Source: a virus (Duplodnaviria > Heunggongvirae > Uroviricota > Caudoviricetes). From it: a stretch of 38,086 nt of DNA. The DNA lies in the IMG/VR virus record IMGVR_UViG_2684622669_000016, positions 1 through 38,086 of that record. One strand, written 5' to 3'. The notes beneath the pieces are model-generated. The model worked only from the letters and a program-made list of their open reading frames with translations, had not been told where the DNA came from and did not search any database. Positions 21,655-30,440 of the stretch are shown piece after piece (positions within the stretch are counted from its first letter, which is position 1; each line of letters begins with the position of its first letter). A program made the translations under genes and the position numbers.

Positions 21655-23421
21655 ATGAACACCACACTGACCCCCGCAGATCTCGATCCCCGTAGGCAGG
21701 CCATGCTGCTGTACTTTCAGGGATACCGCGTAGCCCGCATTGCTGAAATGCTGGGCGAGAAAGTTGCAACCGTTCACAGCTGGAAGAAACGCGACAAGTG
21801 GGGTGACTATGGGCCGCTGGATCAGATGCAGCTCACCACCGCCGCCCGCTACTGCCAGCTCATTATGAAGGAGCACAAAGAAGGGAAAGATTTCAAAGAG
21901 ATTGACCTGCTGGCGCGCCAGTCGGAGCGCCATGCACGGATCGGCAAGTTTAACAATGGCGGCAACGAAGCCGACTTAAACCCTAACGTCGCCAACCGCA
22001 ACAAAGGCCCGCGTCGTCAGCCGGAAAAGAACGTTTTCACCGATGAACAGATTGAGAAGCTGGAAGAAATCTTCCATTCCTCCATGTTCAACTACCAGCG
22101 CCACTGGTGGGAAGCCGGAAAAACCAACCGCATCCGCAACCTGCTGAAGTCACGCCAGATCGGCGCGACCTTTTACTTTGCCCGTGAAGCCCTGATTGAC
22201 GCCCTGCTTACTGGACGTAACCAGATTTTCCTTTCTGCCAGTAAGGCACAGGCTCACGTCTTTAAGCAGTACATCATCGACTTCGCCAAAGAAGTGGAGG
22301 TGGAGCTGAAAGGCGATCCGATGGTGCTTCCCAACGGGGCCACACTGTATTTCCTCGGCACCAATGCCCGCACGGCCCAGAGTTACCACGGCAACCTTTA
22401 TCTGGATGAATATTTCTGGATACCGAAATTCCAGGAGCTGCGCAAAGTGGCTTCCGGTATGGCTATTCACAAGAAATGGCGACAGACCTATTTTTCCACG
22501 CCATCCAGCCTGACCCACAGTGCTTATCCGTTCTGGTCCGGTGCTCTGTTCAACCGTGGGCGCAACAAAGCCGACAAGGTGGACATCGACCTGTCCCACA
22601 GCAATCTGGCTCCCGGCCTGCTGTGTGCAGACGGGCAATACCGCCAGATAGTCACCGTGGAAGATGCGGTGCGCGGCGGCTGTAACCTGTTCGACCTTGA
22701 CCAGTTACGTATGGAATACAGCCCGGACGAATACCAGAACCTGCTGATGTGTGAGTTCGTGGACGATCTCGCGTCCGTGTTCCCGCTCAGCGAGCTGCAG
22801 GCGTGCATGGTGGACAGCTGGGAAGTCTGGACCGACTTTCATGCACTGGCGCTGCGCCCGTTTGGCTGGCGCGAAGTGTGGATCGGTTATGACCCGGCAA
22901 AAGGTACGCAGAACGGCGACAGTGCCGGATGCGTGGTGGTGGCACCGCCAGCCGTGCCGGGTGGTAAGTTCCGCATTCTTGAGCGTCACCAGTGGCGCGG
23001 GATGGACTTCCGCGCCCAGGCTGACGCCATCAAAAAACTGACCGAGCAGTACAACGTGACCTACATCGGCATCGACTCGACAGGTGTCGGCCACGGGGTT
23101 TACGAGAACGTGAAAGCGTTTTTTCCAGCCGTCCGGGAGTTTGTCTACAACCCCAACGTTAAAAACGCCCTGGTACTCAAGGCCTACGACATTATCAGTC
23201 ACCGTCGTCTGGAGTTTGACGCCGGACACACCGACATAGCGCAGTCATTTATGGCAATCCGTCGTGCCACCACCGCCAGCGGCAACCGCCCGACCTATGA
23301 AGCCAGCCGCAGCGAAGAAGCCAGCCATGCCGATCTGGCCTGGGCAACAATGCACGCACTGTTTAACGAACCGCTGCAGGGCGAGTCCGCCAATACCAGC
23401 AATATTGTGGAGATTTTTTGA
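21655..23421 (+). CDS. P: terminase large (ATPase) subunit P
   Basis: 588 aa; size and position as P2 gpP; transcribed divergently from O. Confidence 0.9.
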   Translation: MNTTLTPADLDPRRQAMLLYFQGYRVARIAEMLGEKVATVHSWKKRDKWGDYGPLDQMQLTTAARYCQLIMKEHKEGKDFKEIDLLARQSERHARIGKFNNGGNEADLNPNVANRNKGPRRQPEKNVFTDEQIEKLEEIFHSSMFNYQRHWWEAGKTNRIRNLLKSRQIGATFYFAREALIDALLTGRNQIFLSASKAQAHVFKQYIIDFAKEVEVELKGDPMVLPNGATLYFLGTNARTAQSYHGNLYLDEYFWIPKFQELRKVASGMAIHKKWRQTYFSTPSSLTHSAYPFWSGALFNRGRNKADKVDIDLSHSNLAPGLLCADGQYRQIVTVEDAVRGGCNLFDLDQLRMEYSPDEYQNLLMCEFVDDLASVFPLSELQACMVDSWEVWTDFHALALRPFGWREVWIGYDPAKGTQNGDSAGCVVVAPPAVPGGKFRILERHQWRGMDFRAQADAIKKLTEQYNVTYIGIDSTGVGHGVYENVKAFFPAVREFVYNPNVKNALVLKAYDIISHRRLEFDAGHTDIAQSFMAIRRATTASGNRPTYEASRSEEASHADLAWATMHALFNEPLQGESANTSNIVEIF

Positions 23422-24449
23422 TGGGAAAGAGTAAGAAGAACCGCGCTGCGTCGACGAAACAGATCCAGCATAAAAGCCAGACTTCAGCTGAAGCATTCAG
23501 CTTCGGTGATCCCGTTCCTGTTCTGGACCGCCGCGAACTGCTGGACTATGTGGAATGCGTACAGATGGATCGTTGGTATGAGCCGCCTGTGAGTTTCGAC
23601 GGACTGGCGCGAACCTTCCGCGCCGCCGTGCATCACAGCTCACCGATTGCAGTGAAGTGCAACATTCTGACCAGCACCTACATCCCTCACCCGCTGCTCA
23701 GCCAGCAGGCTTTTTCGCGCTTTGTGCAGGACTATCTGGTTTTTGGTAACGCCTACCTGGAGAAACGCACGAACCGCTTCGGTGAAGTTATCGCCCTTGA
23801 GCCTGCTCTGGCAAAATACACCCGACGCGGGTTAGACCTGGATACCTACTGGTTTGTGCAATACGGTATGACAACCCAGCCGTATCAGTTCACGAAAGGC
23901 AGCATTTTTCATCTGATGGAACCGGACATCAACCAGGAGATCTACGGCCTGCCCGGTTATCTTTCTGCCATTCCGTCAGCCCTGCTCAACGAGTCCGCCA
24001 CGCTGTTCCGCCGTAAGTATTACATCAACGGCAGCCATGCAGGCTTCATCATGTACATGACCGATGCCGCGCAGAACCAGGAGGACGTGAACAACCTCCG
24101 CAATGCGATGAAAAGCGCCAAAGGCCCTGGCAACTTCCGCAACCTGTTTATGTACTCGCCTAACGGCAAAAAGGACGGGCTTCAGATTATTCCTCTGTCA
24201 GAAGTCGCGGCAAAGGATGAATTTTTGAATATCAAGAACGTGAGCCGGGATGACATGATGGCAGCACACCGAGTGCCGCCGCAAATGATGGGGATAATGC
24301 CGAATAATGTTGGGGGATTTGGGGATGTGGAGAAGGCTAGTAAGGTTTTTATGCGTAATGAATTGATACCGCTACAAAACAGAATAGAAGAACTCAATAA
24401 ATGGCTCAAAGATGACATAATAAAATTCATGCCATACAGTTTCATATAA
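23418..24449 (+). CDS. Q: portal protein Q
   Basis: 343 aa; size and position as P2 gpQ; start overlaps the P stop. Confidence 0.9.
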   Translation: MMGKSKKNRAASTKQIQHKSQTSAEAFSFGDPVPVLDRRELLDYVECVQMDRWYEPPVSFDGLARTFRAAVHHSSPIAVKCNILTSTYIPHPLLSQQAFSRFVQDYLVFGNAYLEKRTNRFGEVIALEPALAKYTRRGLDLDTYWFVQYGMTTQPYQFTKGSIFHLMEPDINQEIYGLPGYLSAIPSALLNESATLFRRKYYINGSHAGFIMYMTDAAQNQEDVNNLRNAMKSAKGPGNFRNLFMYSPNGKKDGLQIIPLSEVAAKDEFLNIKNVSRDDMMAAHRVPPQMMGIMPNNVGGFGDVEKASKVFMRNELIPLQNRIEELNKWLKDDIIKFMPYSFI

Positions 24450-24454
24450 AACTA

Positions 24455-24475
24455 AGGGCCGAATACCTCGGCCCT
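24455..24475. terminator. hairpin between convergent Q and the 557-aa cargo gene
   Basis: Stem agggccga (24455-24462) / tcggccct (24468-24475), 5-nt loop; T-rich on the minus-strand 3' side. Confidence 0.4.
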
Positions 24476-24480
24476 CTACA

Positions 24481-26154
24481 TTAAGATTTATGGCTAAAGA
24501 GTATACCTGTAACAGAACGTTGATAGGCATCAAGCTTCTCTTGCCTCTGCTTAAATTTAGATTTGATATCACTAATACTCGGAATACCTATTACTCCAAG
24601 GCCTGCACTTAACGCCGCTAAAGTAGTATTGCCAGTCAGCGCTCCAGCAATTGCTATAGCACCATTTGCGATACATGGTAGGACATCCAGTCCGTAAATT
24701 CTCAATTTCTCTTTTTGGGCTTTTGCAAGAATCCTTTGATGTTCAATAAAAGCCCGGTCTACATTATCAATTACTTTTTGCGTTGTCCTCGAAAAGCTCT
24801 CTGCCGAAGAATTGATTAAAGAGTCAACACCATTTGATAAGATGGATCTTACATCCTCCATCAATTTGTTACGTCTCAACTCAATTATTTTATTGACCGG
24901 TACATTTCCTAACCATGAAAAACCATCTTGCATACCAGCAGATAACGCATGAACCATATGCAAATTTTTTAGTTCAATATCATTGACATCAAAATTAAGA
25001 GATTCGTACTCAATAAGCCAAGTATAATAGAGCCAAGATGTGTCTGCATTTATATATGGAGTACTACCAAGTTCTTGTGCATTACATTTTGCTGAATAGG
25101 CTTGCGGCATTCTTCCAATGCAGGAAAGGAAAACCTCCATTCCAGCATGATCACCAACAACATTACGTGATATTCTTTTTTTATCAGATAGTAGTTTTTC
25201 TAATTGAGTTTTTGGATTTAGCCCCCATGCTGTATCAAAAATAAGTCTATCTGCTCTCTTAATATTTTTAAGAACAGCATCAATATCATTCATCGAATAA
25301 CTAAAATCTTGAAATTCATCGTAGCTTTCGAACCGTCGATCATAGAGATATTGCGCATGAGTCAGAGCATAAGGCTCACAAAAACTCATCAAATTTTTTT
25401 TGCTCTCAGTTTCAAAATCTCTTCTATCCGGCAAAATTAATACTATTGCTGGCTCTATATCTTCAAGCGCTACTTCTTTATATGTCATACATGTTAGGAC
25501 ATGCTTCAGAAGTATCCTTGTAAACTCAGCCTTATCTGACTTTTCATAGAGACGACCGACTCTTAATATAGGACATGGAAGTGAAATAGTATCAACATAC
25601 AACCCTGCAATAGAGACAGCATTCTCATCAAATGCAGGAAATAAGTCACCAGAAAAATTAGCTTTAAACTGAGAACCATCCTGCAAATGTATTACACCAA
25701 TATCGGATGTTACCTGCCAAAACTCTATTACCTGATTATATAACTCAGGAAAAATATCTTCTATTTGCTTAACATATTCTTCTTGTTGAGAAAAAAAACT
25801 TGATGCTTTATGTGGCGTTGCATTAGTTTTTTTCATCAGATAAAACAACTCGCCAAAATTACTAAAAAGAATATTAAAGTAAGAACTTTGCAAGTCCTGA
25901 ATAGAGTATTTGTTTTTTATATCTTCTCTTTCTAAAAAGTGATTAACCGCTGCTCCCATAGCCCTTATTCTGCCATCAACAGTAGAAGGGTCAACTTTAC
26001 CATCCTGTCGCAGCCTTATTCTTTTAAAACTTTCAATAAAACCTTCTACAAGATGATGAGCTATTTTTAGTTTTCCCGCTTCCAGTTGTTGCTTAATGAG
26101 AAAAACACGCTCAGTTAAATCGTCTACATATTCCTCATCTTGATATTTTTCCAT
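24481..26154 (-). CDS. 557-aa protein of unknown function, AT-rich cargo gene (candidate anti-phage / exclusion gene)
   Basis: Long uninterrupted ORF, visibly AT-rich against the GC-rich structural genes; no recognisable motif by eye; C-terminal Gly/Ala-rich hydrophobic stretch. Confidence 0.8.
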   Translation of the reverse strand: MEKYQDEEYVDDLTERVFLIKQQLEAGKLKIAHHLVEGFIESFKRIRLRQDGKVDPSTVDGRIRAMGAAVNHFLEREDIKNKYSIQDLQSSYFNILFSNFGELFYLMKKTNATPHKASSFFSQQEEYVKQIEDIFPELYNQVIEFWQVTSDIGVIHLQDGSQFKANFSGDLFPAFDENAVSIAGLYVDTISLPCPILRVGRLYEKSDKAEFTRILLKHVLTCMTYKEVALEDIEPAIVLILPDRRDFETESKKNLMSFCEPYALTHAQYLYDRRFESYDEFQDFSYSMNDIDAVLKNIKRADRLIFDTAWGLNPKTQLEKLLSDKKRISRNVVGDHAGMEVFLSCIGRMPQAYSAKCNAQELGSTPYINADTSWLYYTWLIEYESLNFDVNDIELKNLHMVHALSAGMQDGFSWLGNVPVNKIIELRRNKLMEDVRSILSNGVDSLINSSAESFSRTTQKVIDNVDRAFIEHQRILAKAQKEKLRIYGLDVLPCIANGAIAIAGALTGNTTLAALSAGLGVIGIPSISDIKSKFKQRQEKLDAYQRSVTGILFSHKS

Positions 26155-26255
26155 AAACGCTCCATTAAAATATTTAATAATGCATATAAGAATAGTTAAT
26201 AATATTTACAGTAACTATATCACATTAGATCCAGATTGTTACACTGTTGCGCGCG

Positions 26256-26274
26256 CTCGTATCCCCGCCACGCC
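26256..26274 (-). other. candidate cos cohesive-end site
   Basis: Minus strand reads GGCGTGGCGGGGATACGAG, about 15/19 identical to the 186 cohesive end as recalled (GGCGTGGCGGGGAAAGCAT). Confidence 0.5.
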
Positions 26275-26544
26275 TGCCCGCTTTATGTAGTGGTTTTCAT
26301 GCACCTGCATGCTCTACGCAAAAGCCCGCCAGTTCTGGTGGGCCTTAGCAATAACGATCCTCAAACGATCATGCAATCTCATGCAGTATAGGCATGCACA
26401 ACAACTTACCTTAAGAAAAAACATCTGATATGCCCAACTGTTTCGTCTCTTTTCCAGTAGCTTGCTATGGCTTATCTTTAATGCAACTGTAATCGTGTAT
26501 GAAGATACAATCCCTACCAATCATAAAAATGAGGAACACAAAGA

Positions 26545-27285
26545 ATGACTGTGCACAAGCTCTCTGGTGCGTTTTTCCACGATATGCAGGTTGAGTGGCC
26601 CTGCCCTAACTGCAATCAGAAAACCCTACAGATCATTAAAGAAAGTTTCGTCTCGTATGACACACATGATACCCGAAAATTCCGCAGTGAAGATTGGTTT
26701 GAACCAGAAATGGATTCATCTATTTTCAGTTGCATGGCCCGCTGTTCAAGAATGCAATGTGGTGAAGTTGTGGCCTGTACTGGTAAGAGTGGATGGGAAC
26801 AAGGTTGGGATGAAGAAAGAAATGATATTGAGTACTATCAATGGCACAGACCTTTCACCTTTTACCCATCACTGCATCCTTTCGAAATACCTGAAAAATG
26901 CCCAGAAGAAATTACCGAACCGCTTGAAGCCTCATTTTCCATTTTCCTAATACAGCCTGGCGCAGCAGCAAACCTAATTCGAATTTCAGTTGAAAGAATG
27001 CTAACCGCTATGGATGTAGCTGAACGTAATGATAATGGCAAACGCATAACTCTACACCACCGTTTAGGGATGCTACCTGAATTATACGGATCGTTTTCAA
27101 GACCTCTTATGGCAATTAAATTTTTAGGAAATGCCGGAAGCCATACCTACGATGAAGTAAAAGTCAAAGACATTGAGGATGCTTTTGAGATTATGGAGTA
27201 CGTCGTCAATGACTTGTTCTCCGGTCGCAAAGAATCTGTCGAAGTATTGACGAAACGATTAAGTGAAAAATTCAAAGAAAACTGA
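26545..27285 (+). CDS. 246-aa protein: N-terminal Cys-rich zinc-ribbon-like region plus C-terminal DUF4145/HEPN-like domain (candidate abortive-infection effector)
   Basis: Strong SD (tgagga) before the ATG; CPNC…C…CSRMQC cysteine cluster; C-terminal …RITLHHRLG…IKFLGNAGSHTYDE… resembles the DUF4145 signature as recalled; AT-rich. Confidence 0.8.
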   Translation: MTVHKLSGAFFHDMQVEWPCPNCNQKTLQIIKESFVSYDTHDTRKFRSEDWFEPEMDSSIFSCMARCSRMQCGEVVACTGKSGWEQGWDEERNDIEYYQWHRPFTFYPSLHPFEIPEKCPEEITEPLEASFSIFLIQPGAAANLIRISVERMLTAMDVAERNDNGKRITLHHRLGMLPELYGSFSRPLMAIKFLGNAGSHTYDEVKVKDIEDAFEIMEYVVNDLFSGRKESVEVLTKRLSEKFKEN

Positions 27286-27295
27286 TCAAGATACA

Positions 27296-27343
27296 GGTGG
27301 TTCACTTTTACGGGCAAAATAACCGCTTTACTTTTGAACCACC
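27296..27343. terminator. inverted repeat between the convergent 246-aa gene and the dinI-like gene (possible bidirectional terminator)
   Basis: 9-bp arms ggtggttca / tgaaccacc around a 30-nt loop. Confidence 0.3.
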
Positions 27344-27413
27344 TAACACCTCGCTACAATCGTTGTTCAGCCTTGCAGATGGTAAAAGCTAGTTTTATCA
27401 TCCGCAACGTTCT

Positions 27414-27647
27414 CTAATGCAGCCAGCTGTCGTCTTCCCACACCTTCTGCATAATTTTCATCACTTGTTTTCTTTCTTCGTCCAGTTGCAGTCCGGTCAG
27501 TTCCACACCGTTAGAGCTACCTTTGCGGATACGAATTACCGTTTTTGGATACAGGGGGCGCAGATTGCGGTAAAGCTCGGATTCAAGGGCATCCAGGATA
27601 GACTGGCTAATCTTCTGCTCTTTATCGATCATTATTTCAATGCGCAT
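27414..27647 (-). CDS. DinI-family protein (Tum C-terminal-domain-like)
   Basis: 77 aa from the ATG at 27647 (MRIEIMIDKEQKISQSILDALESELYRNL…WEDDSWL); matches the DinI fold pattern. Confidence 0.8.
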   Translation of the reverse strand: MRIEIMIDKEQKISQSILDALESELYRNLRPLYPKTVIRIRKGSSNGVELTGLQLDEERKQVMKIMQKVWEDDSWLH

Positions 27648-27657
27648 AAAAGTCACC

Positions 27658-27846
27658 TCAACTGATGACATCCATTGAGCGGTTGTATTCGTGGGTTCTG
27701 ATTTTTGCCATGAGTTCATCTGTTAGTTCAGAAACCCACTGCAAAGCCAGCCCCTTCTCTTCATCACTACACTCACTAGCCGCTACAAGCTTAAGAAAAA
27801 AATCAATGCGCTGGAGCTTCAAAGACTCCAAAAAATAGTCCTGCAT
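27658..27846 (-). CDS. 62-aa protein, first gene of the LexA-controlled operon (possible Tum N-terminal part)
   Basis: Strong SD (ggagg) before the ATG at 27846; LexA box and promoter directly upstream. Confidence 0.6.
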   Translation of the reverse strand: MQDYFLESLKLQRIDFFLKLVAASECSDEEKGLALQWVSELTDELMAKIRTHEYNRSMDVIS

Positions 27847-27887
27847 TTTTCCTCCTATGACACCACAAGCAATACTGTATGCATAAC

Positions 27888-27907
27888 CACTGTTTATATT
27901 TACAGTA
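27888..27907 (-). promoter_or_regulatory. LexA (SOS) box overlapping the promoter of the tum/dinI-like operon
   Basis: caCTGTttatatttACAGta, a perfect CTGT-N8-ACAG; promoter-like TTTACA and an AT-rich -10 just upstream on the minus strand. Confidence 0.7.
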
Positions 27908-27998: not shown

Positions 27999-30440
27999 TT
28001 AATACATGTTCCGCCATTTATCATCCTCCTGCAGACGCTGGTTCCGATAGAAGATACGCAGGCCTGCTCCTGACGGAATACTGCCACCGCGAAGGAGCAA
28101 CTCGACCTCTTTCTCGCTGCCATCAAATCCTCTGGACTTCAGTTCATAGACAAGCTGCTGTCGCTGATGGTCTGTAATTCGCTGTTTGTAGTCTTTACGC
28201 CGTTTCGGTTTCACCAGGCGTAACCTTGCTGCCAGTTCCCGGCGATCTTTTTTGCTCATACTGTGCAGATAATCGTGCAACTCCTTGTCATCCATGCAGG
28301 TAATGTCCGTTCTGGTGTCCCCATCAGCTGATTTATCTTTCTCCTGCTGGTTCAAATTTTCAGCAAGGGGACAGTTATTGCCACGAGTCCAAGGGGCGCA
28401 AGCGCCCTGGTCGGCTGCCGCCTCCTGAATGTCAACGGCCTTACGAACCATTTTCCACTTCACCGCATGAGTGCAGATCTTGCCCTCTGCAATGGGTGAC
28501 CAGATGCCATAAATACGAATGCCGTGATCGCCATAGGCGGTCGGCTCTTCGTTGATTTCATAAGCAGTTCTGATGAGGTGATATTTGCGGGGAACCAGTA
28601 CGCCGCCCTGCTTCATGATGTAGGTAGCAAAACAACCAGCATCAGCAGCAGCCAGGATTGCATCAAGGCGCGGGTTATCCAGTACCGGCGCACCTGCTTT
28701 TTTGTCCCCCTGTTGCCTTGCAACCTGACCAGCCAGCAATCGCAGTTCACGGTAAGCCTGACGCCCCGGAATGCCAAAGAAGCGGAATTGCTGAACACGA
28801 TGCAGAGACGCCCAGGCATTAACGTATTCAGCGTTATCACGCAGGGATTTACCCGTTTCCTTGCTGATCTCGCCAGCCAGACCACGCCCGTCAATGTTCT
28901 TACTGATGTATTTCGCGATGTAGCTTGTTGGCGTACCTTTGCGCGGGTTTATCAGCTCAGACTTAAAGCGTGGTCCCGTGTTATTACCCAGCTCCTCGCG
29001 GTCTTCACGAATGGCAAACTTACGCAACAAAGCAGTAATGGCACGGCGATCTTTTTTGCGCATAAAACACAACAGGTGCCAGTGAACTGTACCGTCATGA
29101 TGCGGCTCAGCTACCCGCACGCCATACCAGCGCAATCCGGCTTTGTGCATCGCCTTACGAAATGCAGCAAACATGCCGACCAGATAATCACTGCTTTGTC
29201 TTACCGTCGCATTTGTCCATGTCGGGTTTGGTCTGCCGTTATTGAGCGTGGAATGGAAACGTGACGGACAGGTGATGGTGTAGAAAACGGCGCAGTCACC
29301 GCGCATTTCCGCGATAAGTTCCAGACCTTTAACACAGGCCATCATCTCATTGCGGCGGTGCGCCGGGTTGCTGCTGCTGGCGTTTACCACATCTTCCATA
29401 TCCAGCGTGTCGCCGTCTTCGTTCACCAGTTCATGAGAACGGAAAAACTCCAGCGACTTACGGCGCTGCTCACGTTTATGCATCACGGCTTCATAGCTGA
29501 CATAGGGGGATGCTTTTTTGCTGACCAGGCAGACAGCACGCAACTGCTCTTCCCGCCATTCGCAACGCATCTTCCATAATTTCCGATACCACCAGTCGGC
29601 ACACAACATACGCGCCAGCGAACCCGGAATGAGTTCATAGGGCACGGGTTTACGGCGGTTTCTTTTCCGACGGAGTTGCTCAAACGCAGGCGGAATAACA
29701 TCCAGACGCAGGGTTTCCGCTGCCACCTTTTCCCATGTTTTGCGGATTTCTTCTGGCTTAACGTCATCGGTGGCATACAAATCACCACAAGCGGCATCAA
29801 GGCACATGCTCATATGCGCAGCGACAAGGGTAGACAGGCGCTTCACCTGATCCTGACTCATTTCAGGCAGGATAAGCAGGCCATCCAGCCCTTCATGACT
29901 TGCCATAAAGCGAAAAGAAGTGGATAGCTGACAGTCGCGGACATGCTCCAGTCGTTCCAGACATGGCTTAATCGTCTCACGCAAATAGCGGGAATAAGCC
30001 TTTGGCCTGCCCAGGCTGCTGAAATATTCAATACGTTGCATCAGCGGCTTGCTGATATGGGAAGGCTGGGCGTTGACGTCAGCCAGAATGACCATGTCTG
30101 GATTAAAACGCTGCTGCTCATGCGCCAGCTTTGCCCGGCTAATGAGCTTATCCTGCTCCATTTCGTGCTGGACAGGATCACGGGATTCATTAAAGAAATA
30201 ACGCTCCCAGACCTGATCACTCAGTGCCTCGCGGCGCAGTTGTTCCTGCTCGTTATCGGCAGCGTACAGAGTGATCAGGTTTGAAAGTGCAGAAACCGGC
30301 GCAACTTCCGCCGGGTCCAGATAAGGGTTAATGGCCTTTTTCGGGCTGTTCCATGAGAATGCTGCGGCGACCTCGTTAAAGCCGCTGCAGTTGTTCATAT
30401 CAGCATGGCTCATGCACGCACTCCGTACACGGCGGAACAA
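27999..30440 (-). CDS. A: replication initiation protein A (rolling-circle HUH endonuclease)
   Basis: 813 aa; HUH-type motif (…[12 protein letters not shown]…); size and position as P2 gpA; the true start may be the ATG at 30413. Confidence 0.9.

Follow-up and report, generated by a model that had tools for sequence, protein, structure and literature searches.

A DitB-related cargo gene between the portal gene and cos of a P2-like prophage: a candidate single-protein defence module

ORF557 is an AT-rich gene inserted between the portal gene and cos

The DNA analysed here, referred to as the window, is the whole stretch of 38,086 nucleotides (nt) of the IMG/VR virus record IMGVR_UViG_2684622669_000016, and the gene under study is ORF557, an open reading frame (ORF) on the minus strand that encodes a protein of 557 amino acids (aa). 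The window carries a P2-like prophage in which the gene order is terminase P, portal Q, ORF557, the cohesive-end site cos, a DUF4145 gene, a DinI-like gene with a small ORF, and replication gene A (Table 1). A first-pass annotation, made from the letters of the window alone, had placed the ORF between Q and a cos-like site and had described it as AT-rich beside the capsid genes, and both descriptions hold. The GC content of ORF557 is 0.354 overall and 0.249 at third codon positions (GC3), against 0.504 for the whole window (GC) and 0.566/0.701 and 0.510/0.628 (GC/GC3) for the neighbours P and Q, respectively. The composition of ORF557 is foreign to the prophage. The ratio of nonsynonymous to synonymous substitution rates (dN/dS) was 0.08-0.18 in comparisons with homologues, in which dS was saturated; this purifying selection indicates that ORF557 is a real gene.

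The assignment of cos was supported by two observations. Its core, GGCGTGGCGGGG, is found once in the window, on the minus strand at 26263-26274, and gave 0 matches in 100 shuffles, and the right end of the P2 genome (AF063097), beside the annotated cosR, aligns to positions 26306-26262 of the window with 82% identity. In P2, as the first-pass annotation had noted, Q lies close to cos: 168 nt, with the terminator tQ alone in between, separate cosL (1-19) from Q (stop at 187), whereas the Q-cos distance in the window is about 1.8 kilobases (kb). Therefore the Q side of cos has gained an insertion of about 1.6 kb. Comparison with Escherichia coli genomes places the cos-side edge of the ORF557 module at about 26246-26249, 7-10 nt from the cohesive end.

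ORF557 carries the predicted signals of an autonomous unit, namely a promoter-like site, a ribosome-binding site and a terminator. The GC-rich hairpin between the stop codons of Q and ORF557 is, by its sequence and place, the predicted terminator of ORF557 and takes the position of tQ in P2.

Table 1 Features of the window around ORF557
Feature	Position	Strand	Remarks
Terminase gene P	21655-23421	+	P2-like prophage gene order
Portal gene Q	23418-24449	+	P2-like prophage gene order
GC-rich hairpin, predicted terminator	24454-24476		10 pairs, then a minus-strand T-run; lies where Q and ORF557 converge, between their stop codons
ORF557	24481-26154	-	557 aa, AT-rich cargo gene; ATG start; exact protein WP_059238439.1
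C-terminal extension, residues 474-557	24484-24735	-	End of long helix, hydrophobic hairpin and basic tail; DitB has no counterpart
Gly/Ala-rich uncharged hairpin, residues 491-528	24571-24684	-	VLPCIANGAIAIAGALTG-NTT-LAALSAGLGVIGIPSIS, basic flanks; putative membrane anchor or effector
Predicted DitB-like domain, residues 82-473	24736-25911	-	Mixed alpha/beta, no solved relative; from hhalign
N-terminal helical module, residues 1-81	25912-26154	-	Helices 7-25, 33-44 and 61-82 in the AlphaFold2 model; absent from DitB
Shine-Dalgarno sequence GGAG	26160-26163	-	5 nt upstream of the ATG at 26154; read from sequence
Sigma-70-like promoter candidate	26214-26242	-	GTAACA, 17-nt spacer, TG-TATAGT (extended -10); between cos and ORF557
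cos cohesive-end site	26256-26274		GGCGTGGCGGGGATACGAG, read on the minus strand
DUF4145 gene	26545-27285	+	246 aa; across cos from ORF557
Replication gene A	27999-30440	-	Beyond the DinI-like gene and a small ORF

ORF557 contains a remote homologue of DitB

ORF557 belongs to no Pfam, NCBIfam or PHROGs family. Sequence-profile searches of the PDB with three alignments (A1, A3 and A5) gave no match, and sequence and fold searches of the PDB and BFVD found no relative of the protein, so that the profile and fold comparisons proposed in the first-pass annotation have turned up no housekeeping, structural or packaging family. Its remark that no Walker A motif could be seen was upheld by a motif search. 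The PADLOC scan that it had also proposed did give a match, to DitB of the Aditi defence system, with an expectation value (E) of 5.9e-10 over residues 195-452. This DitB match recurs in 17 of 33 and 22 of 80 family members, and its best score anywhere is 36.5 bits.

The sequences of DitB (372 aa) and its partner DitA (483 aa) of Saccharibacillus kuerlensis are those published by Millman et al. as supplementary data (10.1101/2022.05.11.491447). The DitB profile was built from 34 DitB relatives and the ORF557 profile, A3, from a diverse alignment of 80 sequences. Aligned with hhalign, the two families matched with 96.1% probability and an E of 2.8e-9 over 339 columns. Residues 82-473 of ORF557 correspond to residues 8-361 of DitB, which is nearly its full length, with an identity of about 13% over the aligned columns, and a series of invariant residues coincide (ORF557/DitB): Q89/Q14, Y92/Y17, F145/F43, W146/W44, P195/P95, P242/P142, Q351/Q242 and P366/P257. 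When the DitB alignment was reversed, or shuffled by column in ten versions, hhalign returned at most 0.4%. On these profile comparisons, we concluded that residues 82-473 are a remote homologue of DitB, and that residues 1-81 and 474-557 are, as aligned, additions relative to DitB.

An AlphaFold2 model built with 33 family members was confident, with a mean predicted local distance difference test (pLDDT) score of 82.4 and a predicted template modelling (pTM) score of 0.75. In it, a helical region at the N-terminus precedes a mixed alpha/beta core that has four short strands; the core is followed by a very long helix (454-507) and, after this, two short helices. The invariant motifs GLYxDTxxLPCP, KHxLTxMxY, GRxPQA and TSWxYxxW lie at the ends of the core strands. 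Modelled by itself, the core (residues 160-452) reached a pLDDT of only 62.6, a poor result put down to its packing against the N-terminal helices. A motif aligned with DDP of DitB is LPDP across the family; the enterobacterial clade has LPCP instead, the Cys being C194 of ORF557 (nt 25573-25575).

Two further profile matches were seen outside or at the edge of the DitB-like domain. The profile of Avs1C (86 aa) matches residues 16-77 in 7 of 33 and 13 of 80 family members, with a best E of 5.3e-7; the ORF557 protein of the window itself gave no Avs1C match. Positions 392-509 of LeoBC match residues 430-540 with an E of 0.003, in the window protein only. Being weak and patchy, both matches are taken as leads, not as evidence of membership.

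The C-terminal stretch is a predicted hydrophobic hairpin

The Gly/Ala-rich stretch that the first-pass annotation had noticed near the C-terminus is real: residues 491-528 are a run of 38 residues without a charged residue. Among 61 full-length family members, the longest uncharged run falls within the last 90 residues in 49, the last 90 residues also hold the most hydrophobic 19-residue window in 47, and an uncharged C-terminal run of at least 30 residues is found in 25. Because the protein has no signal peptide and basic residues stand on both sides of the stretch, the simplest topology would be a hairpin that enters the inner membrane from the cytoplasm.

The ORF557 family is large and widespread

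ORF557 had been called an orphan, which proved wrong. A word-indexed search found 212 relatives, nearly all of 553-562 aa, and an exhaustive profile search found at least 755 cluster representatives (clusters at 50% identity) at E<=1e-3, 263 of them at E<=1e-30. In a scan of species-representative genomes with the close-relative alignment A1 as query, members were found in Beta-, Gamma- and Alphaproteobacteria, Cyanobacteria, Melainabacteria, Firmicutes, Bacteroidota and Chloroflexota. The exact protein of the window was found in Escherichia, including E. marmotae, and its annotation is always 'hypothetical'. No paper found in our literature search dealt with DitB in connection with phages or named any of four accessions from the ORF557 cluster, and a search of the literature on the Aditi mechanism and on recent defence work in the P2 hotspot found none on the ORF557 family.

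Roughly a dozen representatives of the family are longer by some 200-300 aa at the N-terminus (P0173, P0232, P0237, P0247, P0250, P0254, P0259, P0260, P0266, P0274 and P0279 among them). These extensions gave no Pfam or PADLOC match and may be alternative fused modules. E. coli 13P477T has three copies of ORF557 (NZ_CP019273, CP019275 and CP019279), one chromosomal and two on records of 37.4 kb and 22.6 kb that are filed as plasmids; one of the small records is also in the phage collection. The alignment of ORF557 to the small records is broken into 2-3 pieces, pointing to frameshifts or errors of assembly.

ORF557 occupies a variable slot in the defence hotspot of P2-like prophages

The gpA-gpQ hotspot of P2-like prophages is a validated reservoir of anti-phage systems (Rousset et al. 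2022, PMC9122126), and the slot of ORF557, between A and Q and beside cos, is inside it. A member of the family, WP_024235280, is listed as 'hypothetical' in Table S5A of that study and was not in the evaluated set (Rousset et al. 2022, PMC9122126). Occupancy of the slot varies. Of 5426 complete E. coli genomes, 1280 match part of the stretch 24300-27900 that spans it and 17 hold ORF557, all at >=99% identity; cargo found in others includes sieB, DUF2971 and DUF4145 genes.

Recurrence at the Q-cos position, which the first-pass annotation had proposed as a check, was seen. Serratia, a Pantoea-like prophage and 13 of 14 IMG/VR loci have homologues with 46-75% identity that stand convergent to the portal gene, about 30-130 nt away from it. 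They are more diverged from ORF557 than are the adjacent Q (65-87%) and P (68-98%) from their counterparts. The homologues are not merely core genes of all P2-like phages, as is evident from the empty slot of P2, the 17 genomes mentioned above and the contexts outside phages.

Two loci are worth describing on their own. In Enterobacter kobei (FKGF01000001.1, L011 7718-8297), an intact homologue of 59% identity lies beside the last fragments of a P2-type portal gene, with housekeeping genes around them; the cargo gene appears to have outlasted the decay of its prophage. In E. coli EH09-18-41 (NZ_CP063503.1, L017 2876-3421), the portal-cos slot holds a sieB gene of 181 aa in the same orientation as ORF557; therefore the Q side of cos is itself exchangeable, as a place distinct from the old/tin side. 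As to cos itself, the likeness of the window to P2 is confined to positions 26306-26262, on the A (cosR) side. What the window has in common with other E. coli prophages on the Q side ends 7-10 nt from the cohesive end, so that little, if any, conserved sequence would be needed there.

Outside P2-like prophages, the family is often found next to defence genes

The genes beside family members were typed by PADLOC scans, the second of which covered the 10 large immediate neighbours in 9 diverse genomes. Seven of these 10 were strong matches to defence families. The first scan had found Gabija directly adjoining the homologue in a Tn7-like element of Aquitalea (GajA 762 bits, GajB 776 bits) and PDC-S15 on an IMG/VR contig. 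Other neighbours are Old (643 bits) with a MADS gene in Candidimonas, MkoA of Mokosh (325 bits) in a Burkholderiales metagenome-assembled genome (MAG), a type IIG restriction-modification enzyme (1063 bits) in a Comamonadaceae MAG, a ZorD/DpdE-like helicase (444 bits) in a Melainabacteria (Gastranaerophilales) MAG, a retron RT-TIR protein (583 bits) in Pseudomonas capeferrum, a QatA/PifA-like ATPase (115 bits) in Ktedonobacter, and a DUF4238 protein on a Photobacterium plasmid. Some contexts, including the loci L038 and L045, have no recognisable defence neighbour.

ORF557 has no DitA or other conserved partner gene

In S. kuerlensis, DitA lies directly upstream of DitB, and the Aditi system of this species is marked 'Verified' (Millman et al., 10.1101/2022.05.11.491447). 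A tblastn search of the window and 33 other loci with DitA gave no match at E<=1, the PADLOC scan of ORF557 gave no DitA match, and hhalign of DitA against the ORF557 family returned 0.1%. When the ORFs within 4 kb were clustered over 33 non-redundant loci, no neighbour recurred except P2 core genes. In E. coli, ORF557 is the sole hotspot cargo or is paired with a gene for a 386-aa protein or with a DUF2971 gene. The DUF4145 gene is also present there without ORF557, and the two vary independently. We concluded that, over the window and these loci, the ORF557 family has no DitA (DUF5677) or other conserved partner gene.

Two candidate arrangements were rejected. The DUF4145 gene is not a DitA-like partner, on account of its independent occurrence in E. 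coli and the lack of similarity to DitA in BLASTP, and ORF557 is not a fusion of DitA and DitB, as the 483 residues of DitA have no similarity to the ORF557 family. At three loci of Pseudomonas-like metagenome origin (L003 13869-14699, also L004 and L005), a 276-aa protein with a weak DUF5677 match is encoded; in L003 it lies 4.2 kb downstream of the ORF557 homologue, past a retron-like pair of helix-turn-helix and reverse transcriptase genes. It was missed by tblastn with DitA, and its presence is probably a coincidence.

Other genes beside cos

The DUF4145 gene is a second AT-rich cargo gene (GC 0.417) on the opposite side of cos. Its product has a Cys-rich N-terminal region and a C-terminal DUF4145 domain (E 5e-13), and it matches PHROG 1305 (E 8e-50) and, weakly, PD-T7-4 of PADLOC (E 2e-5). 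Because it is found without ORF557 in E. coli, we regard it as a separate candidate single-gene defence module. The DinI-like ORF (27414-27719, minus strand) is 101 aa as called and overlaps the upstream 62-aa ORF at 27658-27846 (PHROG 698) by 62 nt. In near-identical prophages, the DinI-like protein in RefSeq is 77 aa, with a coding sequence of 234 nt; therefore the true start of the DinI-like gene is probably internal.

ORF557 as a single-protein relative of Aditi

On balance, we favour the view that ORF557 is a self-contained cargo gene, or 'moron', of the cos-proximal hotspot which encodes a one-protein relative of Aditi. A single-protein, Aditi-related module best explains the predicted autonomy of the gene, its foreign composition, its location in the hotspot and, elsewhere, in defence islands, the homology to DitB, the absence of DitA and the hydrophobic tail. 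The first-pass annotation had put the gene forward as a separately acquired candidate for single-gene defence, abortive infection or exclusion. The hotspot, the defence neighbours, the lack of a partner and the DitB homology speak for that candidacy, and the relation to DitB had not been foreseen. ORF557 is likely to be expressed by the lysogen and to shield the host from other phages, thereby also protecting the prophage. As to its place in the cell, we hold the chances about balanced that the C-terminal hairpin holds the protein to the inner membrane on the cytoplasmic side.

A mechanism can be proposed only tentatively, and we regard it as doubtful. The DitB-like domain would sense an infection cue, and the output would pass through the hairpin as oligomerisation with permeabilisation or depolarisation of the membrane, that is, as abortive infection; the hairpin would thus do the job that DitA does in two-gene Aditi. 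It is possible, though less likely than not, that a DitB-type domain as infection sensor, fused to a membrane-inserting Gly/Ala hairpin as killing or blocking effector, makes up a widespread and hitherto unrecognised class of one-protein immune systems. If this were true, DitA of classical Aditi would be a swappable effector, the N-terminal extensions of about 200 aa in some relatives would be further alternative effectors, and a first mechanistic handle on Aditi would be gained.

Several observations weigh against parts of this interpretation. The link to DitB needs, at the level of sequence profiles, a diverse alignment: less diverse hhalign inputs were weak, with 6% for the A1 profile and 1% for a single DitB sequence. 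The conserved Asp of LPDP is replaced in the clade of ORF557 by an invariant Cys. Membrane insertion, which the first-pass annotation had suggested, is plausible from the uncharged run and borderline by hydropathy, the Kyte-Doolittle means over 19 residues being 1.62 (488-506) and 1.59 (512-530). The uncharged run shrinks to a median of 23 residues in more distant members, and the AlphaFold2 confidence over the hairpin is only 62-73. The promoter candidate rests on a match to the consensus, and such sites are not above shuffle expectation in the region. Only about one third of the cloned hotspot systems were active on the phage panel (PMC9122126). The assignment of sensor and effector is a guess.

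The main alternative on mechanism is superinfection exclusion at the membrane, in which an inner-membrane protein would block genome entry or an early step of other phages, possibly P2-like ones, without killing the cell. The sieB gene that fills the Q-cos slot in E. coli EH09-18-41, the membrane-type hairpin of ORF557 and the ability of hotspot cargo to act against related P2-like phages (PMC9122126) are all in keeping with it. Classical exclusion proteins, however, are small, whereas ORF557 has a conserved DitB-like domain of 390 residues; no Pfam match to SieB or another exclusion family was found, and the homologues in Tn7-like elements, plasmids and chromosomal defence islands of several phyla point to a general defence role. 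We therefore consider exclusion unlikely. Cargo that does not serve defence is quite unlikely as well. The hotspot also holds such cargo, for example partition systems and the cdt toxin (PMC9122126), family and structure searches assign no biochemical function to ORF557, and contexts such as L038 and L045 lack a defence neighbour, so that a lysogenic-conversion or fitness factor carried in mobile variable regions, with a role in membrane-associated stress, competition or maintenance, would fit these facts. It would leave aside the homology of ORF557 to a component of a verified defence system and the prevalence of defence families among the large neighbours in the second PADLOC scan, besides Gabija and PDC-S15 from the first.

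A weapon of the prophage against the immune systems of its host or of rival elements could account for the fast divergence of ORF557 relative to its flanks, and anti-defence genes can sit among defence genes. Such a counter-defence role is nevertheless very improbable for a protein of this size that is homologous to a defence component, that has stayed intact in a decayed prophage and whose gene lies apart from the early and late operons, has a promoter-like site and a terminator to itself and, by place and orientation, resembles cargo for lysogenic conversion. Nothing but the position beside cos and Q speaks for an accessory of morphogenesis or packaging, and the distribution of the gene effectively refutes it: the 17 carriers stand against 1280 genomes that match the slot-spanning stretch, the slot is empty in P2, the family extends far outside phages and no PHROG was matched.

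A single-protein relative of Aditi would be of interest because Aditi is validated yet little understood and is among the few such systems without a recognisable domain; the DitB link joins a large unannotated family to it. The Aditi superfamily would be enlarged several-fold by a new, much larger, partner-less branch of DitB with added modules. It would also explain an unannotated cargo gene of the P2 hotspot and offer a one-gene, E. coli-native model for the DitB fold. PADLOC calls Aditi as a pair of DitA and DitB and so presumably would not flag ORF557. The finding is not a categorical surprise, since the wealth of uncharacterised defence candidates in P2 hotspots is already known.

Comparison with known systems

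The closest comparison is with Aditi, of which the S. kuerlensis system was verified in Bacillus subtilis (Millman et al., 10.1101/2022.05.11.491447). DitB and ORF557 are alike in having no Pfam domain and no solved structure and in their defence contexts, and ORF557 contains a DitB homologue, a remote one by hhalign (96.1%, E 2.8e-9). In contrast, Aditi is a two-gene operon of DitA and DitB, whereas no DitA (483 aa, DUF5677) adjoins ORF557, and the relatives of DitB are 355-385 aa long, whereas ORF557 has 557 aa with residues 1-81 and 474-557 added. The ORF557 family occurs mostly in Proteobacteria and their P2-like prophages, and the DitB relatives retrieved are from Firmicutes. Because partner gene and architecture both differ, ORF557 is, judged by its predicted make-up, not a member of Aditi as defined. 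The systems behind the two weaker matches are more distant still: LeoBC of Eleos is dynamin-like, whereas ORF557 has neither a GTPase domain nor Walker A, and Avs1C is the small gene of type 1 Avs, whereas ORF557 is without a STAND NTPase (nucleoside triphosphatase) partner.

With old and tin of P2 and the systems of Rousset et al., ORF557 has no relation in sequence, be it to Old, to Tin or to any Rousset system model in PADLOC, and old and tin are on the A side of cos, whereas ORF557 is on the Q side, where P2 has no cargo. What they share is the hotspot, AT-richness, transcription signals of their own and a variable presence. SieB, at 181 aa, is much smaller than ORF557, which gave no SieB-type match in Pfam, NCBIfam or PHROG at E<=1; yet it is an annotated exclusion protein encoded in the identical Q-cos slot and in the same orientation as ORF557.

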